IMG/VR virus record: IMGVR_UViG_3300035193_000067
Location: 64,001 to 128,000 of that record
Reading direction: 5' to 3' (one strand)
Length of the DNA stretch: 64,000 nucleotides
Source of the DNA: a virus
Below the pieces are notes generated by a model. It did not search any database, had not been told where the DNA came from, and saw only the letters and a list, made by a program, of their open reading frames with translations. The translations under genes were made by a program, and so were the position numbers. Positions 1 through 62,594 of the stretch are shown in pieces (position 1 is the stretch's first letter; each line of letters opens with the position of its first letter).

Positions 1-1970
1 GAAGGAGTACCTGCTATCCATGAAGACCCGCCATCAAAGGACACTCTCAAAGTTGCTTCCAAAGTGCCTGAATTGAGACTCAGAAACCATCCTGAGATTT
101 TTAAGTCATAGCCCTCATAATCAGCAATGCCTCCAGGTACACCAAGAACCCCATCAGGAATACGTACGGAAGAATCTATAGCAGAGGATTGCAAAGACCT
201 TCCACTCAATGTAACAGACGTAGCAGCAGAATCAGTAAACCTGTAAGCAAAAGCAGGAGTAACGTCATATGAATCATGCTTATCTGTCAAAATAAAAGAT
301 GGATAAAATTCTGAGGAAGACGTACCAGTTATCGGACTAACTCTCCAGTAGTCAGGAGTCTCTACGTACCCATCCGTAATATCATCATAAACAATTACCG
401 TATCAACCTGAGTAGTCGAGGGTAGAAGTTCTCTGTTTACAGACACCAACAACCCCTGAGATCTCACAGTGTTTTCCACCAGTTTATGAAAAGATACAGA
501 GATGGTTTCTTCAGCCAGTGCTGTTTGTACAAGCAAATCAACATCCACGTAAACGTTAATGACATGACCATCTGCATCAGTTATCGCATAATACCCCGAT
601 TCTGACACAGTATACATACCCCCAAAGGATGCAGAGACTGAAGCTTTCCCGTAGAACTCGAAAACATCAAAAGTAGAGTTATAGATATACCTTACTCTTG
701 CCTCATTAACGTCATGTATATACCCTTTCGCCCCACCATTGATCTCCAAAACCTGTACTGCATTGTTAAAAAGAGAGGATGTACCCAGGTAAAGATCTCC
801 ACCATCCACACCCAGCAACTCAGAAGCTGCATTGTACTGACCACTTTCCACTTTTATCGAATTCGTTGCACGCAGTAGCAACCTGCCTCCATATACTGAA
901 GCAGTGGTAGTGTATGGAGCACCGTATCTAATATCTGAAGAAAGGGCTGTATTGATAGCACTTACCACAGTAGCCACAGAAGGAGTACCTGAAGGAATGT
1001 CTATAGAAATCACTCCTCGTGAGTTCAAGTCCAGGTACAATGTCTTATCGACACCTGATACTATAGAGTAGGAGTATGTTGAAACATCTCTTCCTGTAAT
1101 TGTTACATTGCTAAATTTTAAAGGGCCTGCTAAAAAAACCTCTCCGTCACCTGCGTAGACAGTTTGACCTACACCTCCGTCAGGACTCCACTCCAGATTA
1201 CCTGTAGAAGGATTGTACGTCAAGCTATGTGGTACAGAAGGACTGCTAAGAACATCTGGATCAGCTTTAACCAGCGTTACTCCAGTTATATTTCCTGTAG
1301 AGGTAAGAACAGAAGATCTGTCCAGGAACCTGTGATTAACCAACATGGACTGATCCAGCACCCAATTAGGACCCCAGAACTTACGAGAATAGCTCATAGG
1401 CTCCACTTGAGTAATAACAGCTACTGCCTCATTAAGTCCTTTATAGACGCCTCCAAAATTGCGATAGGAAGCTCTCAGCTGATACACCTGATCTCGGTAG
1501 GAGTCAACCCCTTGACCAGTATCCCTGTAAAAAGATAAAGGCTCTCCATAGATTTCCTGAAGAGATGTAGCATTTGCTGTATTTATTGAGATATTTGATC
1601 TTACCTGAGAAATATTATCGTCAATAATCTCCAGACAGTACGCATATGCTGCCAACCATATTGCCCAATCCCGTACAGTAAGGTATGCCTTATATACTCT
1701 TCCGGTTTGATTAGACCTGCAGGAAATGATAACTTCACCTTGGGGTATCTTTCTGGAGAAGGTAACAGATCCTCCAGAGTTGCTTTTAGCTATACCTGAG
1801 AAATTATCATTTATGTAGATACCAAATTCTGTATTAGGTTCTGTGGTCTCCAATCGTAATGGAGTTGTTCCAGATCTTAACGGTACTACTACACCAAGGG
1901 ACTCATAAAAAGGGCCTCCAACAATACTGCGAACCATCTGAGAGTATCTGTCAATTACAGGGAACGTCAT
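1..1970 (-). CDS. Baseplate wedge/tail protein (P2 gpI-like N-terminal region), partial, runs off window start
   Basis: Not in the ORF track. ATG at 1970, hand-translated MTFPVIDRYSQMVRSIVGGPFYESLG...DSYRDQVYQLRASYRNFGGVYKGLNEAVAVIT; the segment near 815-1100 is open in the same frame. Lies two genes downstream of baseplate J. Confidence 0.65.
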   Translation of the reverse strand, partial: MTFPVIDRYSQMVRSIVGGPFYESLGVVVPLRSGTTPLRLETTEPNTEFGIYINDNFSGIAKSNSGGSVTFSRKIPQGEVIISCRSNQTGRVYKAYLTVRDWAIWLAAYAYCLEIIDDNISQVRSNISINTANATSLQEIYGEPLSFYRDTGQGVDSYRDQVYQLRASYRNFGGVYKGLNEAVAVITQVEPMSYSRKFWGPNWVLDQSMLVNHRFLDRSSVLTSTGNITGVTLVKADPDVLSSPSVPHSLTYNPSTGNLEWSPDGGVGQTVYAGDGEVFLAGPLKFSNVTITGRDVSTYSYSIVSGVDKTLYLDLNSRGVISIDIPSGTPSVATVVSAINTALSSDIRYGAPYTTTASVYGGRLLLRATNSIKVESGQYNAASELLGVDGGDLYLGTSSLFNNAVQVLEINGGAKGYIHDVNEARVRYIYNSTFDVFEFYGKASVSASFGGMYTVSESGYYAITDADGHVINVYVDVDLLVQTALAEETISVSFHKLVENTVRSQGLLVSVNRELLPSTTQVDTVIVYDDITDGYVETPDYWRVSPITGTSSSEFYPSFILTDKHDSYDVTPAFAYRFTDSAATSVTLSGRSLQSSAIDSSVRIPDGVLGVPGGIADYEGYDLKISGWFLSLNSGTLEATLRVSFDGGSSWIAGTP

Positions 1971-1974
1971 ATAT

Positions 1975-2988
1975 CTATTTACCTCCACCCAACCCCTGAG
2001 ATTCCAGAACAGGAGTACGAACAGTAGTATCATCAGGTATAGTCATCTTAACATTAAACTGAGGCGAGTTTAGTATGACTAAATTATCCTCAAAGTAGTA
2101 TTCATAAAAATTGGGGCGTGTAACTGTCCCTCCTGATACCACAGATACGTCCACATAACCACTGTATGCAGCCAACTGATCTCTACCATCTCTGGAAGGA
2201 GGAGTAAGACCTCTTAAACGGTATGCTGAGACTATGATAGGATCAAACACTACCTGCTCACCAAATACCACAAAAGTCTTTAAAAGAGAATGTAATACAT
2301 TTACACCAGCTACTGCATAGGATGCAGAATTATTTGCAGAATAGTAGCGTATAGTAGCACTTGTTGTGACGAATCTTTTCGAACTGAAGAACAATGATCC
2401 GTTTCCATAAAAATACACTGAGGTACCAAATCTCAACATCCGGAAAACTGACACACCAGTTGTCCAGGAAGAACTCCAGGTATCAACCACACGACCATTG
2501 ACAACAACAGAGGCAGTAAGCTCAGTCGTACCACTGGAAGTTCCCTGAGTTACTGCAAATGAACAGTAGTTTGAAGAATCCACGTATGCTTCATATGTAA
2601 ATAAATTGACAGAGGATGAAGGGTATACACTTACGGAAGGTATGCTAACCCGTGTCTCGAATTGAAAGTTTGATACAGAGGATACAGAGGATACCCCGGA
2701 AACACTTCCAGAGGTTGCCCCTGTGTTCAGTAAAAGATTAGGAGAAGCTACAGATATGGATCCAGATCCCGAAGATATATCAGACCATTTGGCAGCGTCA
2801 AGTGTGGCATTGGTCCAGGTATCATCATACCCTTCATAACCAAAACTCTCCCCAGTTAGTACAAAACGCTGGCCGCCCGTAGAAGGACCGGATTCTACAG
2901 AAATACTGCTGAGGACAGTATCAAAACCGTAGACATCACCACCTGCCGCATAAGTACCTGCATATAAAAAGTCTGAATAAAGTCCCAT
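1975..2988 (-). CDS. Baseplate/tail-associated protein with IPT/TIG-like Ig domain and inserted beta-rich domain
   Basis: SSISVESGPSTGGQRFVLTGESFG fits the IPT/TIG start motif; Ser/Thr-rich and beta-rich; lies in the baseplate cluster. Confidence 0.5.
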   Translation of the reverse strand: MGLYSDFLYAGTYAAGGDVYGFDTVLSSISVESGPSTGGQRFVLTGESFGYEGYDDTWTNATLDAAKWSDISSGSGSISVASPNLLLNTGATSGSVSGVSSVSSVSNFQFETRVSIPSVSVYPSSSVNLFTYEAYVDSSNYCSFAVTQGTSSGTTELTASVVVNGRVVDTWSSSWTTGVSVFRMLRFGTSVYFYGNGSLFFSSKRFVTTSATIRYYSANNSASYAVAGVNVLHSLLKTFVVFGEQVVFDPIIVSAYRLRGLTPPSRDGRDQLAAYSGYVDVSVVSGGTVTRPNFYEYYFEDNLVILNSPQFNVKMTIPDDTTVRTPVLESQGLGGGK

Positions 2989-4853: not shown

Positions 4854-5351
4854 TCATGGGATTAAATTTCCCGCTTTCTGTGTTTGAATGTATGCTGCAT
4901 CGTCAATAACATCCAATATAGCTAACAGGAACGTACGAATACCTACCCAGTACGCAATGAGCTGATCATAATAATGAACAACAGATACAGTACTCATCCA
5001 CTGATCAGTATAAGGAGTATACGCAGATAAGGATGCATCGATCAACCCAATCAAAGGATCAGTTATGTAAGCATAGAACTCAGGGCACGCATCATCTATT
5101 GGACCTGGAACCCCACTGAGAAGTGCGGATTTAATTTCATCAATAATAGCCTGTACCTGATCATTGACCAGCTCTGCATATTTTTTAATCAGATCATACT
5201 GAGCTAAAAATGCACGAAGCTGTAAAATCTTTGCATCAATGAAAAACAACGCCTTTTCTACAATAGCCCTTAGTTTTGATAAAAGCTCTGAAGTAATGGA
5301 GTAGATGTAATTTAAAATACATTTTGCAAGAGGTTGAAGTGGTGTTGCCAT
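4854..5351 (-). CDS. Hypothetical helical protein in baseplate cluster
   Basis: 165-aa ORF tightly packed between the spike and gp25-like genes. Confidence 0.6.
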   Translation of the reverse strand: MATPLQPLAKCILNYIYSITSELLSKLRAIVEKALFFIDAKILQLRAFLAQYDLIKKYAELVNDQVQAIIDEIKSALLSGVPGPIDDACPEFYAYITDPLIGLIDASLSAYTPYTDQWMSTVSVVHYYDQLIAYWVGIRTFLLAILDVIDDAAYIQTQKAGNLIP

Positions 5352-5354
5352 GTG

Positions 5355-6653
5355 TTAAACCCCTTTCACCTGGACTGTTGCAGAACTGGATAAGGCTGCT
5401 GCCATTGCTGTAGCCCCTGCTGCTGCAGTAGTGTATATAGTCGCAGTGGCAGGGTCTGGGCTTACTGTAGGATTAGTGGACAGTTTTGTCCACGCAGCCG
5501 CTGCTGAAGTAAAGTAGGTTGTCCAGACAGTAGCCAAGGTAGGAGTAATTTTAACGAAAGGTAAGCTGCCTACAGTATTGCCAAGAGATACCATGGGAGC
5601 TAAAACATTAGCCGCAGAGGCAGCTGTGGCAGTTATTGTAGGAGCAGTTATGTTGTACGCTCCTCCCGCAGAATGAGTGGTTGCTCCTGAAGACGTGATT
5701 GTTGTGCTTAGGTTGGTTATTGACCAGGCTGCCAAAGGTGTCGAAAAAGAGAAGACAGAAGCCAATGCAGCTGTTACGAAACTGTTTCCATTACTGTCAA
5801 TAACTTTATCATGAGTAGTTAAGAGCCCCGTAATATCCTGTGAATACTCCCAACGTCTGACAGGTAGAGCTGAAGGAGATAATTTAATGAAAGATGCACC
5901 ACCTTGCTCTTCAACAACATCTCCCTGAGAAATGTAAGCAAGGTCAACAGGTCCTGTACCAGGGTTCCAGCGAGTTGCTGCAGTATACTCCTGGGCAGCA
6001 GTACCTCTGGATGAAATAATAAGACTCTCTTCCCTGTCTGTAGGCAATTGCTTACGACGGACAGCACCATATCGAATATCTGAGGCAGACGCATTGTTTA
6101 CAATTATCAACGCAGTATTGGTAATATCGTTGGTACTTTGATTGTATATAGACTTGCAACTGGTGGATCCTATAACAGCACGATCACCCAGGTATAAATA
6201 GGATCCTCTGGAGGATTTAAAATCCCAATCTCCAGGCTTCACTTCCCTACCAGCAACAGTACCCCACCCAATACCCCCTACGTCAATACTGTCTTCATCC
6301 TGTATGTCAAAGTCTTTGTAGTATACAGCAGAATATCCTAAAATGTGCACCTTGCGATTAGGAGCTATCCCAACGAGAACCATATCCCCAACCTGAGGAA
6401 TGTACCTCCCCCAGGATGCCTTGTTGTAGTTGGCAGAATCGCCTTCCAAAGGAGCGGACAATCCCAGCAAAGGAAACAGTGCTTCAGCAGTACCTGAAGT
6501 ACTTTCCATGTTCAATGAAACAGTGCCTCTGGAGATATGTACTTCAGATACTCTAGCTCGTTGTATGGAAGAGGTGGACAGCGATTGAGCATGTTCTCTC
6601 TGCTCAAAAGAACTCCTATTCGGAAGTACTGTGTTCATTCCCATGAGTATCAC
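5355..6653 (-). CDS. Baseplate central spike (gpV/gp5-like)
   Basis: N-terminal OB-fold signature ARVSEV...YIPQVGDMVLVG and a beta-rich Ala/Thr C-terminal part; follows the hub gene. Confidence 0.7.
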   Translation of the reverse strand: MILMGMNTVLPNRSSFEQREHAQSLSTSSIQRARVSEVHISRGTVSLNMESTSGTAEALFPLLGLSAPLEGDSANYNKASWGRYIPQVGDMVLVGIAPNRKVHILGYSAVYYKDFDIQDEDSIDVGGIGWGTVAGREVKPGDWDFKSSRGSYLYLGDRAVIGSTSCKSIYNQSTNDITNTALIIVNNASASDIRYGAVRRKQLPTDREESLIISSRGTAAQEYTAATRWNPGTGPVDLAYISQGDVVEEQGGASFIKLSPSALPVRRWEYSQDITGLLTTHDKVIDSNGNSFVTAALASVFSFSTPLAAWSITNLSTTITSSGATTHSAGGAYNITAPTITATAASAANVLAPMVSLGNTVGSLPFVKITPTLATVWTTYFTSAAAAWTKLSTNPTVSPDPATATIYTTAAAGATAMAAALSSSATVQVKGV

Positions 6654-26012: not shown

Positions 26013-27179
26013 TTATTTGGAACCTTTAGCAACACGGCGACCATCAGGAAGACCGAAGCCTACCATCTCAGTAAACATCCAACCCTTAACGGTTTCACCC
26101 AGAGCATACTTATTGTACGGCTCGCTGAAAAGCTCAATACGCTCACCCATAACACCGAGGTACTCAGGAGAAGTACAAGCATAGAAAGTACCGCTGGGGA
26201 TAACTTCCTGTACGCCAGTACCGGCAGCAGTCAGAATTTGAGCATTCATGATGTTACCAATGTAACCAGACAGCAACAGTTCACGCTCAGTAACCGGATC
26301 AACAGCAGAAGACATGGTTTTAACGATGTCAGAAAGCTCAGAACGGTTAATCAGGAACTGCTCCACCATCAAGCGGTGACGCTCTACCTGGTAACGTACA
26401 TCTTCAAAAGCACCAATACCCAAAGTACTGAAAGTGGTTTCGGTGTTTATAGCAGTGGAAGCAGCATCAAGAGCATTGATAGCAGCTTTGTCTTCCTGCA
26501 ATTCGATTTCCTGACGAGCTGTATCCTGAGCTCTTTCCAGGATGTCAAAATTAGCCTGATAGATGTCAACGATGTCTACAGGAGCAAAAGACGTAATTTT
26601 GAATTCTTCCGGAGTAATGTAGTTGGTTTTGATCCGTGATTCAGGAGTTTGACCATCCTGACCGATGATGTAGGCAACCGCACGAACATCCTTCGGAATT
26701 CTGAACAATTCAGCCTGTCCCAGTTTACGAGGCATGAAAATTCTGCGAGCAAAACCTTCATAGTCCAGGATAGCTTTGATCGGAAGAGAAAGCTCTTGAC
26801 CAATGCGATGGAAGCCACGACCACTCGGATCCTGAATAGCAGCTGTCAGTGCACGTCGTTGCTGCTCAAAAGAGGCTTCAACTTTGGAGGAAGTACGCAC
26901 CATTTGAAGACTGGAAGCGTTCTTTTTCGTTACATCGTTCAAGAGATGAGCAACCTGTTGCAGAACGTCTTTTTTGTCATATGCATTGACTTCACCCTTC
27001 GTATCAAACATACGATTGGCAGTTTTGGCAGCTTTATAACGAGTAGGGTTAAATTCCCCACTGGGATCATAAAGACTCTCTTCTCTTTTCGAAGAAACTT
27101 TTTTAACCGGTTTTACACGCATACGGCTAGGAGCTGTCTTCGAAGCACTCTTACGGAAAGGATTTTTCGTATTCTTCAT
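26013..27179 (-). CDS. Major capsid protein (HK97 fold, basic N-terminal extension)
   Basis: 388 aa after protease, scaffold and decoration genes; LDYEGFARRIF, EIELQEDK and KGWMFTEMVGF capsid-like segments; AGGAG RBS; followed by a terminator. Confidence 0.88.
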   Translation of the reverse strand: MKNTKNPFRKSASKTAPSRMRVKPVKKVSSKREESLYDPSGEFNPTRYKAAKTANRMFDTKGEVNAYDKKDVLQQVAHLLNDVTKKNASSLQMVRTSSKVEASFEQQRRALTAAIQDPSGRGFHRIGQELSLPIKAILDYEGFARRIFMPRKLGQAELFRIPKDVRAVAYIIGQDGQTPESRIKTNYITPEEFKITSFAPVDIVDIYQANFDILERAQDTARQEIELQEDKAAINALDAASTAINTETTFSTLGIGAFEDVRYQVERHRLMVEQFLINRSELSDIVKTMSSAVDPVTERELLLSGYIGNIMNAQILTAAGTGVQEVIPSGTFYACTSPEYLGVMGERIELFSEPYNKYALGETVKGWMFTEMVGFGLPDGRRVAKGSK

Positions 27180-32162: not shown

Positions 32163-33929
32163 TTATCCTATCGAAGGCTCTGAAGGAGTCTCCACTGTGT
32201 CACTCAAAGTACCCCCTGAATCAGAGTTACCTGGAGGAGTTGATACTTCGGACTTACCACCGTTTGAAGGAGGGGTGGATCCTGGAGGTTTAGCGCCGGA
32301 TCCTGCACTGCCAGGTGGTTTGGATCCTCCTGCGCCCTGCTGATCCTCCTGAGCCATTTCAGCACTCATAGTAGGACCGAGAACCTTCTCACGGATACGC
32401 TTCTGCTCCAGAAACTCTGCAGCTCTTTTCTCTTCTTCCTCTTTCCAATTAAGTCCAACAGCGCTACCAACAGTCTGAAGAGATACTTTGAACCCTAGGT
32501 TATTGAGTTGTGAAATAGCTGTCAGAAGGTCTGTATCAACTGTGGAATCCAATCTATTCTTCCAACGGATCTTAGGCTCAATGGACAAACCCATCTCCCT
32601 GGCTTCCTGTCCAGTGCGTTTAATACGAATCCTATGGTCTACTTCAGCTCTTGTGGACTTCTGCCAATCATTGATGTCAATGATTGGTTTGAAGAATTTT
32701 GGATATAGCCAAACACTCTCAAAGAACTGTCGCATACTAAGCAGTTTTCTCAGCAGGACCTGAATACCACTCTTAACCGCTGCAAAGGATGTGTCTCCGG
32801 AAAGAATAGATTTCGATAAACCTAATCCTACCAGTTTAATCTGCTCTATGGTACTCCATTCTCGATTGATCGAGATAGCCTGATTAGTATTACCCCAGGT
32901 CTCAAAATTGACTGCATAGTTTGTAGCAATCCATGTCTGAGGATCTATCTCAGCCTGATTGACCATCTCCAGGATATTTCGCTGCATATCAGGACCTGGA
33001 ATAAAACCTGTCTGAGAGTCTCCCATTTTGATTACCTTCAGAGGAGCTGCATGACGCCTGTAGGTGGCGATAGTGGACGCATAGACTGCATCCTCCACCA
33101 TATTAATCCGCCACAATCTGGAAGCCAGTGAGGTGCCTCTGACATCATACGGATGTAGTTTTCTGGGTATGAAGGTACAATTCAAAGGGCTAAGACGTAT
33201 TTTCTGATTGGACAGAACCTTGGACACAAACTCAGCAGGCAATGATCTGCGAATCTCCATTGACTCAGGAGTATTGTCCATTAACAGCTCTTTTAGAGAA
33301 TCCGGAGGAAGAAAGTACAACAAAGAATCTGCATTTAGCATGTAAGGATCAATAACATCAATGTAATCAGGATCATGAAAAGTTACCTTGTCCCAGATCC
33401 CTTTTTGGTTATTGAAAGTACAGTGAGGTGCAGCTTCCCCAACACCCAGAAACTCTGTAACCATATCCTGAAAGGTTCTTTGCAGATTTACGGTCTGAGC
33501 CATGTCCTCTAATTGACGTTTAATTGAGGAGTCCTGATCATTGGAGATAGTGATATCAAAATCACTTACCATCATTGTAGCATACATATCCACAGCAGTA
33601 CCGAACACAGGATCCATCTTGTAGAAGAGTCTCCAATATTTGGTAGCTTCACAACGATCATCAGGGTACCAGGGTCTGTCAGGAGAATCAAATTCAGGAA
33701 GATAAGGTTTCTGGGTATGAAACATAGAGTTTCCACCTGATCCAAAAGAAGAGGATCCGCCCCAGTAATTTGCCGTTTTATTATTGTAATCCATAAGACT
33801 GTAGCCTTCCGGTAAAGCTGATTTGGCAACCTCCCGTCTGATGTAGTCAGGGCTTGTTGACTCGCTTGAATGAGATGATAATGAATTCATCCTCTTTGAT
33901 TTTAAGAATGAATCAGACAGTCGTGACAT
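32163..33929 (-). CDS. Portal protein
   Basis: WRLFYKMDPVFGTAVD, RGTSL, RHAAP..VIK and QFFE..WLY motifs, Pro/Gly-rich tail; start at ATG 33929 by TAATG coupling (track 33962). Confidence 0.85.
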   Translation of the reverse strand: MSRLSDSFLKSKRMNSLSSHSSESTSPDYIRREVAKSALPEGYSLMDYNNKTANYWGGSSSFGSGGNSMFHTQKPYLPEFDSPDRPWYPDDRCEATKYWRLFYKMDPVFGTAVDMYATMMVSDFDITISNDQDSSIKRQLEDMAQTVNLQRTFQDMVTEFLGVGEAAPHCTFNNQKGIWDKVTFHDPDYIDVIDPYMLNADSLLYFLPPDSLKELLMDNTPESMEIRRSLPAEFVSKVLSNQKIRLSPLNCTFIPRKLHPYDVRGTSLASRLWRINMVEDAVYASTIATYRRHAAPLKVIKMGDSQTGFIPGPDMQRNILEMVNQAEIDPQTWIATNYAVNFETWGNTNQAISINREWSTIEQIKLVGLGLSKSILSGDTSFAAVKSGIQVLLRKLLSMRQFFESVWLYPKFFKPIIDINDWQKSTRAEVDHRIRIKRTGQEAREMGLSIEPKIRWKNRLDSTVDTDLLTAISQLNNLGFKVSLQTVGSAVGLNWKEEEEKRAAEFLEQKRIREKVLGPTMSAEMAQEDQQGAGGSKPPGSAGSGAKPPGSTPPSNGGKSEVSTPPGNSDSGGTLSDTVETPSEPSIG

Positions 33930-34462
33930 TACATATCCACCAAAACAGAAAGAACCTGCCATTGATAATTAGACAGCTTAAGATTATCGTAATTAATGTC
34001 CTTAATAGATATTTTCTCAAAGTCATAATCTGAATATCCTGAAATAGTATTTCTGTAATGCTCTTCTACAGACTTGAGATATTTTATAAAATCTGCATAT
34101 TCAGAATTTTCAGAGAAATCATTCTTTATTTTTAAAACTTCACCCTCATGCCCTGGTATAATCTTACCCAAACCTGTAGGATCTTTAACCAGATTTCCTT
34201 CAACATCCTTTTCAAGGTGATCGTCTTTAACAAGATCTATCAAAGATGACATGGATTTCTGATGCTCTTCAGAACTTTGAAGCTCCAACAACTCTTTTTC
34301 CACAGAAAGTATTTCCTGATAAGCTTCTCTCAAATTGAAGAGATTTTTAGACATGACAGTATTTGCTTCATACGTATACTGTACAGACTGTGTCAGCATA
34401 TCTGTAAAAAATAATTTTACTAAAGCTATAATATCGCTGTTTTTTATTTTCATTGAAAGCAC
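33929..34462 (-). CDS. Hypothetical protein
   Basis: 177-aa ORF coupled to the portal gene. Confidence 0.55.
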   Translation of the reverse strand: MLSMKIKNSDIIALVKLFFTDMLTQSVQYTYEANTVMSKNLFNLREAYQEILSVEKELLELQSSEEHQKSMSSLIDLVKDDHLEKDVEGNLVKDPTGLGKIIPGHEGEVLKIKNDFSENSEYADFIKYLKSVEEHYRNTISGYSDYDFEKISIKDINYDNLKLSNYQWQVLSVLVDM

Positions 34463-34944: not shown

Positions 34945-37900
34945 CTATATAGGTGTAGGCTCTTTTAATAGTACTGGGCCCCTAGAACGCACATGGTAAT
35001 GTACAATAACATCACTTGCACGGCTTGTGGTATCCCATGTAACCCTGATCGTTAAAGTACCTGGAGTCCCTGTTGTTATTTGTTCAATTGAATCCAACCA
35101 ATCTATTGAAGTAGGCTGTAATGTATTTTCAGTATTAGCTGTTTTCATATTTGGATAATCTGCAGCATCAATGTGCTGCGAGATTGCAACCAGTACAGAC
35201 GTCGTATTTCTGACTTGTAAAACAACATCAGTTATTAAAGATGCAACTTCTTCCGCCCCAGAAACGTCCTGAAGAACATTAGGTATTTTTATATCATATG
35301 TACCTGATGCAGTTCCACTGGGGACTGTAAACTGGTCAGATCTTTTGAGATCGATGTAATCATTGTACCTGTCGGATATGAGCTGTTTTGATGCTCTACA
35401 CCAATCTAAATAAGAATAATGCCCTCCATCATAAATAAAATCAGACGAGTTGATGTTCGATCCATCGATATGGTTAGGTGCGTTTAATGTGAGTGATGGT
35501 AATTGGTAGACGACTATTTTATCACTCGCATTATCCAGGGAATATAATTTTCCTTCGTAAATATCAGTATAATTTCCCTGGAATGAAAAAGTGTTATTAT
35601 ACAGTTCATTTGTCAGATCATCTGGGTCTAAATATAATATTTTTTTAGAAGAGTAATCGCCAAGTGCAACACATAGTGTATTAAAAAACGGTGAGACAGA
35701 TGAGGAAGTTAGTGATGACACTACAACGCTGTATGCATTTGAGCTATCGTCAATCGCTCCTGTAGATGTATTAATATTTCTGACATAGACATCTGCAGTA
35801 GAAGTGTTATCTCCATCCAACACAAATAATTTCTCACCCACAAAACACAGTGCATACGCCCGATTACTGATCCCTATTGGTCCAGCGATATTTGATAGTA
35901 CATTAGTATCCATATTGTATTGAAAATAAGTTTTTGCCCCGTCGACAATATGTAATATACCATCCTTCTCTACAATTCCACCATAGCCTGCAACCAAAGC
36001 GGCTTGATATTTGGTTGTTGTTATGTTCAACAGAGGATTGTAAATACGTACGTTGACACCTGTAAAATAATATAATTTGTCATCAGGAGCTATAAACCCC
36101 CTAGTGTAGGGAAGCAGTTCTGTTGCATCTAATATTTTTTCTCCAGTAATCCTATTATATACCCTGTTTTCAGACGCTATAGTACTTGTGACTATCACAT
36201 GTTTTTCACCAATCATTATTGACTGATAATTAGCAGGAGTATCAATATTAAACTCCGATTCAGCAGTCAGACCCCTAAACTCGACCCCCGCATAGTCAGT
36301 ACTTCCAGTGGTCACACCGTTCGAAATTTTAAATTTCTGCGCCGTAGACGTGATCGATCCCTGCATGTTTCCAGGATTAACTTCATCCCCGCCTAAATAC
36401 TCGTGATTAGGTGCATGAGGACCAACTGCCAGAGGATCTGTGGAGGTACCTGTACCTGTCAAAGTTGAATCAGTTGATACAGTGCTTAAAAAACTTCCTG
36501 CAACAGATCCTACAGTTATTGTACGAGATCCTTCAAGCCTTAATGATTCTTCTACTGTCCAATCCCCTCCAGTCCTGTTAATAATAAATCTCTGTATAGG
36601 CACAAACTCAGCAACGAGTGAAGAAAACTCTCCAAGATTCAACTCCTGAGGATAATATTGTTGAGCCAAACTCAAAGAATCGAAGTAGTCCTGACCAGGA
36701 ATGTAAATGAATCTTGCCAATTGTGAAGCAGCATCTTTGGTAACAGGAAGAGCATAAAGGAAAACAACACCATACTTTGCAGTAGGAATATCTGTAAGCT
36801 GCCACGCACCTCCAGTATACTGATTATATCTTGGAGCACCTGCATTTAAAGGAACTATGTCAGTAGAACCTGTAACCAGGTTAGTTAGAGCACCTGCACC
36901 TGTCAAATACACTTGAGAGTAATTGTTTTGAGTATTGTGAACAAGCAGCCTGGATTTCCTATCCTCATCTGCAACAACACACTCAGAAACAATAGGACGC
37001 CTTTCAGAAGCTGTCGTACTGCTTAATACAATACCTGAAACATCACCACCTGAGTATCTGTAAGTACCATGCAGATTATGCATTTCCTCATGAGATGCAG
37101 TGCTCATCCCACAACCGTGCATCTCTTCCAATCCAAAAAGGAATGTACCAGCACTGTTATAAACTACTGCACAGATCTGAACAGTATTAAAAGACCACGG
37201 CAAAGAACTCCAGGTAAAACTGCCGTCATAATACAAGTACTGGGTAGTTGTAGGAGCAGCAGTATAAGAACTGGAAACCCAACCATTGGCTACTCCGATG
37301 TCATCACCATTGTAAAGAGCTGATATATCAACTCCAGACAACGTTACTGTCCGTGCAGTAGTGTCTACTGCAGCCTGCTGATTATCCGGATCAGAAGTGT
37401 ATTGAAAACCTATAGGCTCCCCTGTTGCAGTAACATACCGAGACATTCTGGCGGCTGCAATTTCACCAGCTGCATCTACATGATAAAATTCATCAGTTGT
37501 AGAGCTACCACCTTGAAGACCTGAAAGACCATTGTGTACAGGGATTCCTGAAGACGAAACAGGTGCACCAAAAGCTGATTGAACAATTAATGACGTTCCG
37601 GATTTTGCAACAATAACTTTCCCAACTCGAATAGAAAAATCCACAAGGTTGTCAGGTATATCTGAAGGAGGTAATGCATTTTGCGCTTCTTCAAGCGTAT
37701 AAGAATTTAACCCGTAAACTACATATAAATTGGAACCGCTGAAATCAAGATATACCCAGTGTACTCCGTATTTATTGTTTGCCAGAGTCTGTAAAGATCC
37801 TGATCCATCATCGTATTGAAGATTATCAATAGCTGTCTGGGATGATACTACAGTATGACCACCAATACCATCACGGTAGATATAATCAAAAGTATCTGCA

Positions 37901-44390: not shown

Positions 44391-45158
44391 TTAATCAGAT
44401 TGTGAGGGATCTGATGTACTCACAGCAATAAAGTTGTTACTTTCTTCTAGCGTATATAATACATCTGGTTCAAGACCGTCTTCTCCTATATACCCTATTT
44501 TAACACGGGATCGTTCTACCTTACTATCCCAGTACTCAATAGAAATTTTACCTCGTTCACCTGCTGAAGCAGATCCTCCGCATCCTACCGTGGCAAATCC
44601 TTCAACACCCACTTTAGCAGATCCTCCTGATCCTGCTGTAGCATACCCATAGTTATCAGCTACGGAAACCCCGTGATAGCCAGAAGTAGATCTACCTCCT
44701 ATACCTGAAACTGAAGTTCCATAATCACCTGTACAGGAGACTCCGCACTTTCCTGATGTAGCAGATCCTCTGCAACCTGAAACAGCCATTGCAAGATCTC
44801 CTACAGAAACAGTAGCACCCACTACAGGACCTTGTGCTCCTTTTCTCATGATAAAATCTGTAGCAGATTTCTGATCCCCACAATGCTCTACATACCCTGA
44901 TTGAAACTCGACATGTGTGCTATGCTGCCGGATAGTACCATCTACACGAATTACCAACCACTTAGCTTCAGGAAACCAATCAATTACACCACCAAAACCA
45001 CTGCCCCAAAAAAGACCATACAACCCACTATGATCAACTTCAGGATCCCAGTCAGCAGACTCCACATAACCCGATTCAGGCCATTGAAAACCTTTATAAT
45101 CAGTAAGATCCTCTTTACAAGTCCTCAAAACATAAACTGGATTATTTACACCACTCAT
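44391..45158 (-). CDS. Mini ice-nucleation-protein-like repeat protein (paralogue 1)
   Basis: VLRTC...WPESG.VE...GL.GL.WG.G N-domain, 11 octapeptide repeats, YWD...GYIGEDGLEPDVLY C-cap. Confidence 0.75.
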   Translation of the reverse strand: MSGVNNPVYVLRTCKEDLTDYKGFQWPESGYVESADWDPEVDHSGLYGLFWGSGFGGVIDWFPEAKWLVIRVDGTIRQHSTHVEFQSGYVEHCGDQKSATDFIMRKGAQGPVVGATVSVGDLAMAVSGCRGSATSGKCGVSCTGDYGTSVSGIGGRSTSGYHGVSVADNYGYATAGSGGSAKVGVEGFATVGCGGSASAGERGKISIEYWDSKVERSRVKIGYIGEDGLEPDVLYTLEESNNFIAVSTSDPSQSD

Positions 45159-54533: not shown

Positions 54534-55328
54534 ATGTCTAAACCTTTTTTGAAATGGGCAGGAGGTAAAGCCCAGCTTCTCCAGCAGATTTACAAGCACA
54601 TTCCTGAGAATTTCGGGACATACTTTGAGCCTTTTATAGGAGCAGGTGCTGTATTCTTCTCCCTGAAGCCTGAGAAGGCTGTCCTGAACGATGTAAACGG
54701 GGACCTGATGAATACCTACCGAGTCGTTAAAAACAACCTGCAGGGCGTTATAGAGCTCCTACAGACGTATGAGAATGATGAGAAGTTCTTTCTGAGCATG
54801 CGTGAGAAGATGCCGATGGAGATGTCCGCTCTGGAAGCTGCAGCACGTTTTGTCTATCTGAACAGAACAGCGTTTAATGGGTTGTATCGAGTAAACTCGA
54901 AAAATAAATACAATGTACCTTTTGGTCATTATAAAAACCCAACTATCTGTGATGTCCAGGCGCTTACACTTGCATCCAAAGCATTAAAATCTGCGGAGAT
55001 TATGTCTACAGATTTCGAAAAAGTTCTGTTGACAGCTGAAGAAGGTGACTTTGTTTATATGGATCCCCCCTACATAAAAGTCAATCATAGCTCTTTTGTA
55101 GGATACTCCAAAAAAGGATTCAACGACAAGGACCACGAACGTTTGGCAGATCTGTTTAAGGAACTGATGGGCAGAAAAGTAAAATGCCTGCTGAGTAATG
55201 CAGACACTCCGTACACCCGGGAGCTTTATTCAGGCTTTGATATAATTTCTGTGGAAGCTCGCAGAAACATTAATTCCAACGGAAAAGGAAGAGGAAAGGT
55301 CGGTGAAGTTCTGGTAAGGAACTACTGA
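54534..55328 (+). CDS. dam: DNA adenine methyltransferase (Dam/D12 class)
   Basis: PFLKWAGGK, EPFIGAGAVF, FNGLYRVN..NVPFG and DPPY motifs. Confidence 0.93.
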   Translation: MSKPFLKWAGGKAQLLQQIYKHIPENFGTYFEPFIGAGAVFFSLKPEKAVLNDVNGDLMNTYRVVKNNLQGVIELLQTYENDEKFFLSMREKMPMEMSALEAAARFVYLNRTAFNGLYRVNSKNKYNVPFGHYKNPTICDVQALTLASKALKSAEIMSTDFEKVLLTAEEGDFVYMDPPYIKVNHSSFVGYSKKGFNDKDHERLADLFKELMGRKVKCLLSNADTPYTRELYSGFDIISVEARRNINSNGKGRGKVGEVLVRNY

Positions 55329-56044: not shown

Positions 56045-56905
56045 ATGGATCACTATTTAGTAATTTTGTATTTACTTGGGGTTTTACTTATTACATTTAT
56101 TATTAGTATTTCGTGGAAGTATTTATTAATTCGTTTTGATCGTAAAAAAGATATTTTCGGTGAGGGTGGTGGGGTGTATGTTTTAAGGACCTGCAATGAG
56201 GATTTAACATCTTACAACGGTTTTCAATGGCCTGAATCAGGTCCTGTTGAAGCTCCTGACTGGGATCCTGCCGCAGAATGCGGCAATGGCCTCCACGGCC
56301 TCCTCTGGGGTCAAGGAGATGGAACATTGCTGGACTGGTCTTCTAAAGCCAAATGGTTGGTTGTTCGCGTAACAGGTCCTATCACAGATCTGAAGCAAAA
56401 GGTAAAGTTCCCGGCAGGCTACGTGGAATTCTGCGGGGACCGCAAAGCTGCCACAGAATTTATTATCTCTAAAGGGGCTGACCCTGCTAATACAGTTGGT
56501 GCTTTCATTACTGTTGGAAATAATAAAACAGCTGCTACAGGTTACCAAGGAACTGCCACAGCCGGTGATGAAGGAACTGCTACAGCTGGTGATGAAGGAA
56601 CTGCTACAGCTGGTTACCAAGGAACTGCCACAGCAGGCTACCGAGGATCTGCCACAGCTGGCGATGGAGGATCTGCTACAGCAGGTAATTATGGAAAGGC
56701 TACAGCTAGCTGGAGAGGATCTGCCTCAGTTGGCTACCAAGGATCTGCAGCAGCCGGTAAGTTTGGTATGATTTCCATTAAGTACTGGGATGAAGAAGAA
56801 ACACGATACAGGTTGAAAGTAGGGTACATTGGAGAAAAAGGTTTGAAACCCGACACTCTCTACAAACTGGATGAAAACAATGAATTTACAGAGGTGCAAT
56901 CATGA
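56045..56905 (+). CDS. Mini ice-nucleation-protein-like repeat protein with N-terminal TM (paralogue 2)
   Basis: TM helix, InaZ-like N-domain, 11 ATAGxxG(T/S)-type octapeptides, InaZ-like C-cap. Confidence 0.8.
   Translation: MDHYLVILYLLGVLLITFIISISWKYLLIRFDRKKDIFGEGGGVYVLRTCNEDLTSYNGFQWPESGPVEAPDWDPAAECGNGLHGLLWGQGDGTLLDWSSKAKWLVVRVTGPITDLKQKVKFPAGYVEFCGDRKAATEFIISKGADPANTVGAFITVGNNKTAATGYQGTATAGDEGTATAGDEGTATAGYQGTATAGYRGSATAGDGGSATAGNYGKATASWRGSASVGYQGSAAAGKFGMISIKYWDEEETRYRLKVGYIGEKGLKPDTLYKLDENNEFTEVQS
56530..56760 (+). repeat. 24-bp coding tandem repeats (ggaactgc(c/t)acagc(c/t)ggt...)
   Basis: Encodes the ATAGxxGT octapeptides; boundaries approximate. Confidence 0.85.
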
Positions 56906-57621
56906 AATTATGGACAGTTACCTGGGCAGATATTGATGATGGATCTTTGATGGTTGATTATGTTTCAGCGCCTATCTCTTACAAATCTATTTTGAAGATC
57001 CTGAAGACCAAGATTCTGAAGAATCGATCAAATATACAATATATTGCCAAAAACGCCCCTCGGGCAGGTTTGGCGAAACTTGTGGAGTACCTGGCAGCCA
57101 ATGGGGTAAAAGTTGGAGTACGTACAACACCTGATCATGAGGATTCCAACAGATCTGGTTTAACCTACCTGAAAGGAGATGCAACATATCCTCAGACAGG
57201 TAATGCATGTGTTATTCCACATATCTGCAATGACTGGGGTCTCTGGGGTTCTGGTTTTGTGATAGCAGTATCAAAGCGCTGGGAGGGACCTGAGAGACGG
57301 TATAAAGCAACCTTTAAGCGCTCAGGACTGTACCTGGGAATGACTCAATCAGTTCTGGTTGAGGATGACAAGTATGTATACAACATGGTTGCGCAGCACG
57401 GAACTATCAGTAGAGACAATCCTCGACCATTATCTTACGATGCATTGTATGAATGCTTGACAAGTCTTTGTGCATTTGCTAAGAAGAATAGTCTGGAAGT
57501 GCATGCTCCAAAATTCGGCTCAGACAGAGCTGGTGGAAGCTGGGCAATAATTGAAGAAATGATCATGGAGACTCTGGTGAGAAAAGGTGTGAAAGTCTTC
57601 ATCTATGAGTACTGTGAATAG
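56902..57621 (+). CDS. Macrodomain (ADP-ribose processing) protein with extra N-terminal domain
   Basis: YLKGDAT, HICND.G.WGSGF..A, VYNMVAQ and PKFGS..AGGSW..IE motifs. Confidence 0.85.
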   Translation: MKLWTVTWADIDDGSLMVDYVSAPISYKSILKILKTKILKNRSNIQYIAKNAPRAGLAKLVEYLAANGVKVGVRTTPDHEDSNRSGLTYLKGDATYPQTGNACVIPHICNDWGLWGSGFVIAVSKRWEGPERRYKATFKRSGLYLGMTQSVLVEDDKYVYNMVAQHGTISRDNPRPLSYDALYECLTSLCAFAKKNSLEVHAPKFGSDRAGGSWAIIEEMIMETLVRKGVKVFIYEYCE

Positions 57622-58352: not shown

Positions 58353-58910
58353 TTGACAAAAAATAAACTAAGGAGGTTTCTTATGGTTAAACTTGTTAGA
58401 GATCCTAATATGTGGAAAGATATTGAGAGGCATTATGTTTTGAATTTCCACGATAAAGAGTATGAGGGTTATTATATAAACCCGTGGTGCAGTACGTCAA
58501 GAGATATGCCTGATGGTTATCATTCTGATTTTTTTGGAATTGTACTTGATGGTACTTTGTGTGGAAGTATTATTTATGATCTGGATATAGAGTCTCGCTC
58601 CATATATGACATCGGTGTCTTCATCTTCAAGGAGTATTTGGACAAAGGGTTAGGAGTGGTTGCTTTGGTTAAGTTCCTGGAGTACGCGACTAAGACTTTC
58701 TTTAAACTAACGTTTAGCTGTGTAACAGATAATACTCGTGCCAAGAAGATTTATGACAAAATCTTAAACATGGGAGGGGTATTTGTAGGTACGTATAGGG
58801 AGCATACAATAAGCGTAGATGGTAAACGTCATGATCTAATGATGTATGAGCTTATCTGCTCAGAGTTCAAACCAGACAGCTTATATAAAAAACTACTGAA
58901 GAGAGGTTGA
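58353..58910 (+). CDS. GNAT (RimJ/RimL-like) N-acetyltransferase
   Basis: IGVFIFKEYLDKGLG, DNTRAKKIY and GKRHDLMMY; start probably MVKLV after AGGAGG. Confidence 0.8.
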   Translation: MTKNKLRRFLMVKLVRDPNMWKDIERHYVLNFHDKEYEGYYINPWCSTSRDMPDGYHSDFFGIVLDGTLCGSIIYDLDIESRSIYDIGVFIFKEYLDKGLGVVALVKFLEYATKTFFKLTFSCVTDNTRAKKIYDKILNMGGVFVGTYREHTISVDGKRHDLMMYELICSEFKPDSLYKKLLKRG

Positions 58911-58951: not shown

Positions 58952-60913
58952 ATGGATAACGGAGAGTACACTTATCATCACGGTTTTAATATAGCTGAGA
59001 TGGATAATTTAGCAGGTCCTGAAATAAGGGAATTACAGATAGGAATGCTTGAGGAGGCAATTCTGTATCACAGGAAGAAGTACTATTCAGGATCTGCCGA
59101 AATATCTGATCAGGAATTTGACATCCTGGAAGAGATGCTTCGAGATCGGTCTCCTTACAGTCCTGTTCTGCAATCTGTAGGAACCTCTCCTGACACGGAG
59201 AAGGTAAAGCATGACATTCCTATGCTGTCTCTTCAGAAAACAAAAGATCCTGAAGAAGTTATCCGTTGGGCTGCCGGAGAATCGCTTTTACTATCTGACA
59301 AAGTTGATGGATCTGCTGCATCTCTTATTTATGTCAATGGAGAATTTACTCTCGCAAAGACTCGTGGAGATGGTATTTATGGGGAAAATATTACTGCATC
59401 CATGAAGCATGTATCCTTTCCTAAAAAGATCTCTCCCTCTATTGAAGAGGTGCGTGGAGAGGTTTGCATACTCATCCAGGATTTCCTGAAGCTGCAGGAG
59501 GAAATGTCAAGACGTGGTTTACAGCCTCCTAAAAGCATCCGCAATTGTGTGGCAGGGCTTCTTCACAGAAAAACTGAGACAGATCTGTGCAAGTATCTAA
59601 CATTTCTTGCATACGGTATGGAGTCTTCAGATAGTTATACACGTGAAGATGATCTGTTTATTGGGTTATTCAGAGAAGGGTTTAGTCTTCCCCGGCATCA
59701 ATGTTATCTGCGTAATATTAAAGAGAGTATACAAAAGTTTCGTGAAGAACCTGTCGATTATCTGACAGATGGCTTGGTATTCTCTATCATGTATCTGTCA
59801 AACCAAACTGCCCGAGGTTTCACCAGCCACCACCCAAAAGGTAAGATGGCCTTTAAATTCCCTGCAGATGTTGTTACATCAACTGTAACAAACATTCTCC
59901 TGGATGTTGGAAGAACTGGAAAGATCTCTTTTGTTGCTGAAATAGATCCTGTACAGGTGCCTGGGGCGACTCTGAGTAAATGCACTCTGCATAACTGGAA
60001 GTACGTAAAAGACAACAGCGTAGCACCTGGAGCTGTCATTGAGATTATACGCTCCAATGATGTTATTCCAAAGCATGTAAGCACTATTCAGCCTGCAACT
60101 GTTGAGAAACCTGCAGAATGCCCTGTATGCGGCTCTGAGCTCTCTTTATCTGATACCGGGATAGACTTGTACTGCACCAACCTTAACTGCCCTGCAAAGG
60201 CTGCTGGACGCGTTGAGAATTGGGTTAAGGTACTAGGTATTGACAACCTTGGAACAGAACTGCTGAAGAACCTGTACGAGTCTGAGAAGGTTCAATCAAT
60301 TCCGGATCTGTACAGGTTGAAAGTTCAGGATCTCATGGAAATGCCAAGGATGGGAAAAAGATCTGCTGAAAAGGTATTCAAGAATATCCAGAAATCTGCG
60401 GAAGTTCCTTTTGACAAGTTTCTGGCAGGACTTGGTATAGAAGGGTTGGGTGTCAGCACTGCCAAGACAATTGGAGAGCACTTCCTGAGTATGGACAGTT
60501 TTTATAGAATATTTGACCAGGGTATACCTACTTTAATTCTTTCCGGATTGAGAGATATTGGGGATATTACTGCAGAAAACATTGTGAATGGGATGTTTGA
60601 TTACGGACTGAGTACTCTGGTAGAGATGCGGCAGGCTGGGGTAACAATTGTTGACCTGGAGGATCCCAAGGACTGTACGCTTTCTGGTAAGGTATTTGTG
60701 ATAACCGGCAATCTTTCCCGTCAAAGAAAAACAGTTTCAGACATGATTAAGAAAAAAGGTGGTAAAGTCTCCAGTAGCGTTTCTGGGAAAACTGATTATC
60801 TTGTATGCAACTCTTCCAGTGGTTCAAAAAAATGTCGAGCTGCGGGAGATCTTGGAGTACCTGTAATTACTGAAGAAGAGCTGTACAAGCTTATGGATGG
60901 TGGTAAAGAGTGA
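58952..60913 (+). CDS. ligA: NAD-dependent DNA ligase
   Basis: KVDG adenylation motif, TRGDG, AFKF, GRTG, C4 Zn finger, HhH repeats and BRCT domain. Confidence 0.96.
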   Translation: MDNGEYTYHHGFNIAEMDNLAGPEIRELQIGMLEEAILYHRKKYYSGSAEISDQEFDILEEMLRDRSPYSPVLQSVGTSPDTEKVKHDIPMLSLQKTKDPEEVIRWAAGESLLLSDKVDGSAASLIYVNGEFTLAKTRGDGIYGENITASMKHVSFPKKISPSIEEVRGEVCILIQDFLKLQEEMSRRGLQPPKSIRNCVAGLLHRKTETDLCKYLTFLAYGMESSDSYTREDDLFIGLFREGFSLPRHQCYLRNIKESIQKFREEPVDYLTDGLVFSIMYLSNQTARGFTSHHPKGKMAFKFPADVVTSTVTNILLDVGRTGKISFVAEIDPVQVPGATLSKCTLHNWKYVKDNSVAPGAVIEIIRSNDVIPKHVSTIQPATVEKPAECPVCGSELSLSDTGIDLYCTNLNCPAKAAGRVENWVKVLGIDNLGTELLKNLYESEKVQSIPDLYRLKVQDLMEMPRMGKRSAEKVFKNIQKSAEVPFDKFLAGLGIEGLGVSTAKTIGEHFLSMDSFYRIFDQGIPTLILSGLRDIGDITAENIVNGMFDYGLSTLVEMRQAGVTIVDLEDPKDCTLSGKVFVITGNLSRQRKTVSDMIKKKGGKVSSSVSGKTDYLVCNSSSGSKKCRAAGDLGVPVITEEELYKLMDGGKE

Positions 60914-62183: not shown

Positions 62184-62594
62184 ATGGGAAATTTTAACAA
62201 TAATGTACTGGACCGTGAAGTAGTTGAAGTAGGTAACTCAAAAAGAGCTATTGTAGGTGATTATGGTAAAGCTGTTGCAGGTGCATGGGGTACAGCTTTA
62301 GCAGGTTACTATGGGACTGCTGTAGCAGGTAGCTGGGGTACTGCCGAAGCAGGAGAGCATGGCACAGCTATTTCAGAGTATAAAGGTGTATCCAGAGTTA
62401 GCAGGGGTGGAAGAGCTGCCTCAGGTGAAAAAGGGCGTATTGAGATAGAATACTTTAACGACAATGAAGAAAGGGGTAGGGTTATAGTAGGTTACATCGG
62501 AGAGAATGGATTAGAGCCCTACGTATTTTACCATCTTAATGAATCTCATGAACTAATTCCCGTTGAGGGCGAATGCGGAAGGAGACTGTCATGA
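62184..62594 (+). CDS. Mini INP-like repeat protein lacking the N-domain (paralogue 3)
   Basis: 9 octapeptides (AVAGAWGT, ALAGYYGT...) plus VGYIGENGLEPYVFYHL C-cap. Confidence 0.75.
   Translation: MGNFNNNVLDREVVEVGNSKRAIVGDYGKAVAGAWGTALAGYYGTAVAGSWGTAEAGEHGTAISEYKGVSRVSRGGRAASGEKGRIEIEYFNDNEERGRVIVGYIGENGLEPYVFYHLNESHELIPVEGECGRRLS

Follow-up and report, generated by a model that had tools for sequence, protein, structure and literature searches.

A short phage-borne relative of bacterial ice-nucleation proteins from the Bbp36/DUF7666 family, present in twelve genes of one environmental virus

Ice-nucleation proteins (INPs) are described from Pseudomonas syringae (InaZ), P. borealis (PbINP), Xanthomonas and Pantoea, and these served as our known system for comparison. 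The N-terminal domain is reported to anchor INPs to the outer membrane, and InaZ without this domain stays in the cytoplasm (PMC9418140, PMC10727499). Truncated INPs with 12 repeats are inactive, the minimum being 13-15, and INP researchers reported no structural homologues for the N- or C-terminal domains (PMC9418140). The other close known system is Bbp36 of Bordetella phage BPP-1, whose repeat region is annotated as 'variable region 2' (VR2). In the account of Liu 2004 that PMC2884959 cites, VR2 consists of a 24-bp unit present 9-20 times, the number varying by isolate, its function is unknown, and bbp36 is non-essential, being dispensable for growth. Here we describe a related gene in the virus record IMGVR_UViG_3300035193_000067. 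The window analyzed is a stretch of 64,000 nucleotides (positions 64,001 to 128,000 of that record), in which positions 56045-56905 (+ strand) form an uninterrupted open reading frame (ORF) of 286 codons plus stop, encoding protein P0001. Judged on its sequence, this protein is a genuine relative of INPs in head, rod and cap, yet it stands outside INP membership. We consider it somewhat more probable than otherwise that it is a non-structural, membrane-tethered protein of phage-host interaction, one of 12 paralogues and a short phage-borne sister form of INPs.

The comparison relied on INP genes retrieved from reference genomes by a degenerate DNA pattern for AGYGSTQTA, with ten complete INPs from Pseudomonas and Xanthomonas as the test set. 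An earlier note on this DNA had claimed that all three parts of the protein align with INPs, on the basis of InaZ motifs. These motifs proved correct against the fetched genes, the strings quoted in the note (VLRTCNEDLTSYNGFQWPESGPVEAPDWDPAAECGNGLHGLLWGQG, AKWLVVRV, VKFP, GDRKAATEFI, KGADPA and the tail YWDEEETRYRLKVGYIGEKGLKPDTLYKLDENNEF) are all present, and the alignment of head, repeats and cap is borne out by BLASTP, hidden Markov models (HMMs) and hhalign. In BLASTP, the head shares 44 of 106 residues (42%) with an InaZ-like N-domain (first 200 residues; 81.6 bits, E 2e-23), and the C-terminal 110 residues scored 41.2 bits against the phage protein. An HMM of the phage-family head found 10/10 INPs at 90-104 bits; a cap-only HMM (45 amino acids, no repeats) found 10/10 at 24-34 bits, each time at the extreme C-terminus. 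Alignment of the phage family with INPs by hhalign gave 99.95% probability for the head (E 4.5e-38) and 98.1% for the cap (E 1e-13), so that the profile comparison the note had proposed for the two non-repeat domains is significant for both. Conversely, a search of 1.84 billion representative proteins with a profile built from six INP heads matched 1227 clusters at E<=1e-3, 593 at E<=1e-10 and only 9 at E<=1e-30; starting near rank 11, the matches are phage-type proteins of 100-360 amino acids, with E values from 1e-27 to 1e-18.

The protein shares with INPs the N-terminal globular domain and the C-terminal cap, and departs from them in the PF00818 repeat, the length of the array, the R-coils and the linker after the head. 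PF00818 gave no match at E<=1 in the protein, and none anywhere in the phage genome. Arg-rich R-coils are absent beside the cap, where the last octads are unlike the (G/A)DRSKLTAG type of INPs. The array of ~5.5 coils lies below the activity minimum of 13-15 coils, natural INPs having 50-80. The INP heads, in turn, fall short of the Pfam family DUF7666 that the phage protein matches; therefore Pfam alone conceals the link between INPs and phages.

The gene family to which this ORF belongs is already known and not new, in agreement with the note's suggestion that similar phage proteins might exist in databases as uncharacterized families (DUF7666, phrog_18079 and Bbp36/VR2). The whole ORF, a short INP homologue of the Bbp36/DUF7666 family, matches phrog_18079 over its full length (E 2.3e-82) and DUF7666 (PF24703) over residues 45-129 (40.4 bits against a cut-off of 27). 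Identity to BPP-1 Bbp36 is 44.9% over residues 46-285 (E 2e-29), and the protein has the family's octads with a 24-bp DNA period, followed by the W-D...R-Y-R...G-Y-[IV]-G-E-x-G cap. At 90% identity, matches to the family number over 3,100 clusters, many of them from Pseudomonas aeruginosa and Paraburkholderia prophages; it is common in prophages of P. aeruginosa, Bordetella and Burkholderia, and at least 308 IMG/VR contigs match it. The copy in Burkholderia phage Mica bears the annotation 'ice nucleation protein', derived from a BLAST match to a Pantoea INP. Short Lys/Arg-rich N-tails precede the head in many relatives (P0011, P0024, P0060, P0064 and others), and no relative has a signal peptide. 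In one metagenomic relative (P0122, 531 amino acids) a phosphoribosyl pyrophosphate (PRPP) synthetase (Pribosyltran_N + Pribosyltran) is fused to a DUF7666-repeat protein, which may be a gene-call fusion. DUF7831, which is fused to some relatives, has no match in the PDB and is absent from this genome.

Four regions follow one another on the + strand of the ORF, whose ATG lies 3 nt past the stop codon of the upstream gene. Codons 1-43 (56045-56173) encode a hydrophobic N-terminal helix (about residues 3-36) and the basic stretch RFDRKKD. The head domain, homologous to the N-terminal globular domain of INPs, spans residues 44-150 (56174-56494). The β-solenoid rod occupies residues 152-242 (56498-56770) with ~5.5 coils of 16 residues, and the cap, homologous to that of INPs, comprises residues 243-286 (56771-56902) as a β-hairpin (242-261) and two short strands. 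In the head, R48, T49, C50, W62, D72, W73, C79, G80, G82, L83, H84, G85, K119 and K121 are near-invariant across the phage family; INPs have lost D72, C79, H84 and K119. The rod consists of 10 canonical octads, A-T-A-G-x-x-G-[TS] (residues 163-242), and one degenerate leading half-coil, with [TS]-A-T ladders on both faces and both x positions variable. The octads nearest the cap are ATASWRGS, ASVGYQGS and AAAGKFGM. At the DNA level, Tandem Repeats Finder detects the 24-bp period at 56547-56707 with 81% matches, and because the repeats are only this much alike, their slippage should be slower than in BPP-1. The rod was also considered as a DNA mimic, which was ruled out, as its charges amount to about five acidic versus four basic residues.

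AlphaFold2, supplied with 60 relatives, modelled the protein with a pLDDT of 91.5 as a helix (3-36), a β-rich head (44-142), strands spaced eight residues apart between 154 and 237 and a hairpin cap (242-261). The β-solenoid that the note had suggested is thus the fold predicted, and its count of 11 octapeptides is a fair description of the 10 canonical octads plus one degenerate half-coil, the model having 11 short strands. Residues 1-43, the hydrophobic helix, went unmentioned in that note. Such a hydrophobic extension (Kyte-Doolittle value 2.76) occurs in 1 of ~120 relatives, namely this protein. Codons 1-43 have a codon-usage score of +0.30 in frame and of -0.77 and -0.80 in the other frames, while real genes give 0.08 to 0.70 in their in-frame windows; since they score as coding in frame, the membrane helix is probably real. 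It is likely an inner-membrane anchor with the body of the protein in the cytoplasm, as predicted from the basic residues that follow it. A possible internal start, the GTG of V44 (56174-56176) with the Shine-Dalgarno-like GGTGAGGGTGG upstream (56159-56176, + strand), was read from the sequence; it would yield a soluble form of 243 amino acids with the N-terminus typical of the family, whose members usually begin no more than 15 residues ahead of LRTC.

Prediction with two copies of residues 44-286 scored 0.65, while the best of three controls scored 0.00. Of 30 proteins solved as one-chain pairs, 20 attained the mark used for a dimer, as did 1 of 23 proteins known as single chains; these counts are only rough because the alignment was one made for this work. 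At least 98% of contacts agree between runs, with a partner pLDDT of at least 92. In the predicted interface, alternate octads contribute their x1-G-A face (178/180/182, 194/196/198 and onwards), joined by the hairpin of the cap and by a small number of residues from the head. Residues 164, 212, 257 and 259 make self-contacts, which implies that the pair is parallel and in register. The model therefore predicts a parallel in-register homodimer, which matches the Tyr-ladder dimer proposed for INPs.

The note had further suggested that the protein bears on the origin of INPs, and this is supported by the head tree, by an intermediate protein and by the INP-profile search. In the head tree, INPs group as a single clade (support 99) with a long stem; midpoint rooting, the only rooting used, places this clade within the phage sequences at a depth of eight nodes. 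INPs are internally about half as diverse as the phage set, and they make up less than 1% of the head superfamily. Their sister in this tree is a protein of 273 amino acids encoded on a lambdoid viral contig (L157, IMGVR_UViG_3300036779_000281; 4956-5774, + strand), which has a phage-type head (PDW...CGNGLHG), GYGSTLT-like repeats GG[DYN]GSTLT and the cap RWNGKRY. Two Pfam families recognize it, PF24703 (35 bits) and PF00818 (25.4 bits, E 1e-5), and its identity to an InaZ-like INP over the last 146 aligned residues is 43% (107 bits). Octads of the SKLTGGDRS type, resembling the R-coils of INPs, are found in other phage members (P0258). Descent from phage to bacterium is the more economical reading, and INPs most likely arose from the phage family by expansion of the repeats.

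The gene is one of several in its genome. The 163,407-bp record holds 13 ORFs with parts of this family, corresponding to 12 genes, whereas other viral contigs carry one family copy, rarely two. Six paralogues have head, rod and cap, one split by the contig ends within the repeats; three have rod and cap only, one has two rod-and-cap units in tandem, one is a head only and one has head and rod without a cap. Two further paralogues lie in the window: paralogue C (44391-45158, - strand; 255 amino acids; phrog_18079 E 7e-46), with head, ~11 octads and cap, and paralogue E (62184-62594, + strand; 136 amino acids; phrog_18079 E 7e-30), with octads and cap and no head. Those outside it are at 3-446, 34958-35608, 132494-133228, 134580-135290, 137206-137697, 147150-148923, 153047-153781 and 163195-163407 in coordinates of the full record. 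The paralogue heads form one clade with support 99; the copies therefore arose by duplication within the lineage. At 147150-148923 (- strand of the record), a head-only ORF overlaps a rod-and-cap ORF by ~80 nt, next to the capless head-and-rod ORF; this may be a frameshift-split copy beside a decapped one. One paralogue is interrupted within its repeats by the two ends of the contig (3-446 and 163195-163407, - strand), and the genome is probably circular or circularly permuted. Many IMG/VR contigs likewise stop just past the head, and the 24-bp repeats evidently break short-read assemblies.

Around the gene, the + strand of the window carries a Dam-type DNA methyltransferase (Dam methylase; 54534-55328), a macrodomain gene (56902-57621; PDB 2fg1 at E 4.1e-36 and 5e3b, 'Macrodomain protein', at E 3.5e-32), a GNAT acetyltransferase (58353-58910) and an NAD-dependent DNA ligase (58952-60913). 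The block resembles an early region for host takeover or counter-defence, and several small ORFs without a family match also lie in it. The genes for the major head protein (26013-27179) and the portal (32163-33962) are on the - strand. A megablast search with 12 kb around the gene found no match among phage records, and by major head protein the nearest phage is Virus Rctr197k (57%). In BPP-1, bbp36 is located between cI and an exonuclease gene, and a cI/replication-side early operon holds the family gene in BPP-1, Mica, D14O, two bacterial prophages and the lambdoid L157 locus. This early-operon position, together with the lack of a conserved neighbour, is consistent with an accessory early protein that takes part in host takeover or in conflict between phage and host.

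The fold of the head has resemblances of two kinds. Sequence and profile searches found no match in the PDB, and Foldseek gave no significant match there for either the whole protein or the head. The structures in the PDB that look like the head, with weak Z scores, are exclusively ADP-ribosyltransferase (ART) folds, among them TreTu, TreX, PARP13, diphtheria toxin, PltA and AvrPphF, as well as PARP10, Tpt1, CC0527, ParT, pertussis toxin and DarT. A second structural comparison returned 15/15 ART folds, and BC2332-like and CC0527-like are SCOP families of ADP-ribosylation. Among predicted viral structures in BFVD, at least nine rIIB models match the head (TMq 0.56-0.66, best E 9.9e-4, both sides being predicted models), an rIIB cluster in the Atlas matches it at TM 0.67, and many giant-virus proteins with ankyrin repeats or DUF4116 match it through a terminal domain at TMq ~0.6 (BFVD). 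Other viruses join the head to pentapeptide, YdcK, hexapeptide or ankyrin arrays. PF26926 (rIIB) has no match in the protein; a sequence relationship with rIIB was rejected after weak hhalign results for a single sequence and for 119 rIIB C-domains, and the likeness was kept as a structural one only. The T4 rIIB gene considered is at 1469-2404 (- strand) of L167.

We return to the reading of a membrane-tethered, non-structural protein of phage-host interaction. Under it, two rods would pair in parallel through the face that bears the first variable residue (Tyr/Asp), and the membrane helix of this copy would hold the dimer at the inner membrane, on its cytoplasmic side. The protein would be an accessory one, made alongside the early host-takeover or counter-defence genes for Dam methylase, macrodomain, GNAT and NAD-dependent ligase. 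The conserved head may serve as an anchoring or effector module, since its INP homologue is needed for envelope localization and its fold recurs in the membrane-associated rIIB of T4. As the INP N-domain is reported to anchor INPs, rIIB is membrane-associated and this copy has its own membrane helix, association with the envelope is the simplest property common to all three. The capped rod would offer a rigid and readily diversified recognition surface, because the two x residues of each half-coil vary and the repeat number can change through the 24-bp repeats. The 12 diverged copies could then form a battery with differing surfaces for phage-host conflict, and the protein itself would not nucleate ice.

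Several points weigh against this proposal. The membrane helix is confined to this copy, and the internal GTG with its strong Shine-Dalgarno sequence could give a soluble form instead. Most relatives are without a signal peptide or transmembrane segment, many of them having Lys/Arg-rich N-tails, and such N-termini fit a soluble cytoplasmic protein equally as well as an envelope one. The likeness to rIIB is structural only, hhalign against T4-type rIIB giving a probability of 6.6% (P 0.0055), and the dimer is a model prediction. There is no conserved gene neighbour in 80 viral loci, where the largest neighbour cluster comprises 4 loci, so that the guess at a role relies on what type of region this is. 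The direction of descent between phages and INPs relies on midpoint rooting and relative diversity, with no outgroup. Finally, the sole experimental datum on the function of any member is its dispensability for plaque formation.

The strongest competing explanation, which we regard as unlikely, makes the head a divergent domain of the ADP-ribosyltransferase superfamily, either catalytic or a binder of NAD or ADP-ribose, with the rod picking the target and the macrodomain reversing or buffering the effect, as in DarT-DarG. The resemblance of the head to ART folds such as TreTu, PARP13, Tpt1 and DarT speaks for it, if with weak Z scores, and so does the relative fused to PRPP synthetase. Its main support is the macrodomain pairing. 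The ATG of the macrodomain gene overlaps the stop of the studied gene (ATGA), and the two are predicted from this arrangement to be translationally coupled. Two unrelated viral contigs of high GC content show the same abutting pair, L098 (4791-5630 then 5630-6172) and L125 (4366-5286 then 5286-5753); these hold the only other macrodomain ORFs in the 80 viral loci, both directly downstream of the family gene, and the heads of the macrodomain-paired loci are not close relatives. The pairing is rare yet non-random, although ~60 other complete loci have no macrodomain neighbour. The head also shows no sequence-level tie to any ART: its conserved polar residues are R48, D72, C79, H84, K119 and K121, without an invariant Glu or Gln, and neither an H-Y-E nor an R-S-E triad is recognizable without a residue-level superposition. 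Moreover, INPs keep the domain despite their loss of D72, C79, H84 and K119.

A wider version of this explanation is less probable still. It holds that the head common to the phage family, T4 rIIB, the giant-virus repeat proteins and the INP anchor is a divergent ART working with the coupled macrodomain, that the 12 copies are NAD/ADP-ribose effectors aimed by their solenoids, and that INPs descend from such an effector.

We consider it very improbable that the protein works as an ice-binding (antifreeze-like) or weakly ice-nucleating protein for freezing habitats through its [TS]-A-T ladders. The note had judged the array too short for efficient nucleation, which agrees with the truncation data: 5.5 coils are fewer than the minimum of 13-15 (PMC9418140), and the R-coils for multimerization are missing. 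The prophage hosts, P. aeruginosa, Bordetella and Burkholderia, are of warm habitats, no export signal is present, and the membrane helix predicts a cytoplasmic location. In addition, the head is found elsewhere on pentapeptide, YdcK, hexapeptide and ankyrin arrays without T-x-T. Binding of ice in vitro is possible, but biologically it is not favoured. A virion component, whether a β-solenoid fibre, needle or decoration protein, is hardly credible, given that the gene sits in a + strand block of early and DNA-metabolism genes far from the - strand head and tail genes, that all annotated relatives are in regulatory or replication regions, that Bbp36 is dispensable, and that an Atlas cluster is named 'phage non-structural protein'.

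These findings place INP domains for which no structural homologues had been reported in a superfamily carried by phages and comprising over 1,200 sequence clusters, and they make the origin of biological ice nucleation testable, as a phage accessory protein with an expanded rod. The 'INPN' anchor, widely used in surface display, gains many natural relatives, and a structural hypothesis now connects this anchor with rIIB and the ART-like fold. Frequent as it is in P. aeruginosa, Burkholderia and Bordetella prophages, the family has no assigned function, and the 12-copy expansion and the macrodomain coupling provide handles for finding one.

Set against known systems, the protein is like T4 rIIB ('protector from prophage-induced early lysis') in being a non-structural early protein, rIIB being annotated as membrane-associated, and it shares with the C-terminal domain of rIIB (PF26926) a C-x-x-G-L-H motif followed by a hydrophobic strand. 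It is unlike rIIB in that the latter has an N-terminal helix-turn-helix, has neither solenoid nor cap, and carries the shared domain at its C-terminus. The ART fold (SCOP d.166.1: Arr, Tpt1/KptA, BC2332-like, CC0527-like, PARPs and ART toxins) provides the sole solved structures that resemble the head, and the head gene has a macrodomain neighbour in 3 loci. Solenoid antifreeze proteins, such as the Rhagium mordax AFP and region IV of Marinomonas MpAFP, have in common with it a short capped solenoid of similar size with T-x-T-like ranks, whereas the phage protein gives no sign of homology to them, of secretion or of a cold habitat, and its ladders run along both faces, with one face predicted to be hidden within the dimer.

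Bbp36 of BPP-1, BMP-1 and BIP-1 (DUF7666 + DUF4774) has the same three-part architecture, 24-bp period and position in the early region, and likewise no known function. The repeats of the present gene have diverged (81%), in contrast to the near-identical 19+5-bp units of Bbp36, and the N-terminal membrane helix is found only in the gene studied here. The setting also differs, with 12 paralogues in a 163-kb environmental virus versus one copy in a 42-kb temperate podovirus. With INPs, the phage protein shares the homologous head (42% identity; TM 0.90 between models), the solenoid register A-G-Y-x-[GS]-T-x-T, the homologous hairpin cap and, in the predicted dimer, the use of the Tyr-bearing face that has been proposed for INPs. 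Unlike INPs, it has 5.5 coils rather than 50-80, and its two half-coils are alike, where INPs pair AGYGSTxT with AxxxSxLT. It has no PF00818 match, no R-coils and no long flexible linker after the head, and it retains in its head PDW...CGxGLHG and K-x-K, both lost in INPs. It is, moreover, encoded by a phage and probably cytoplasmic.

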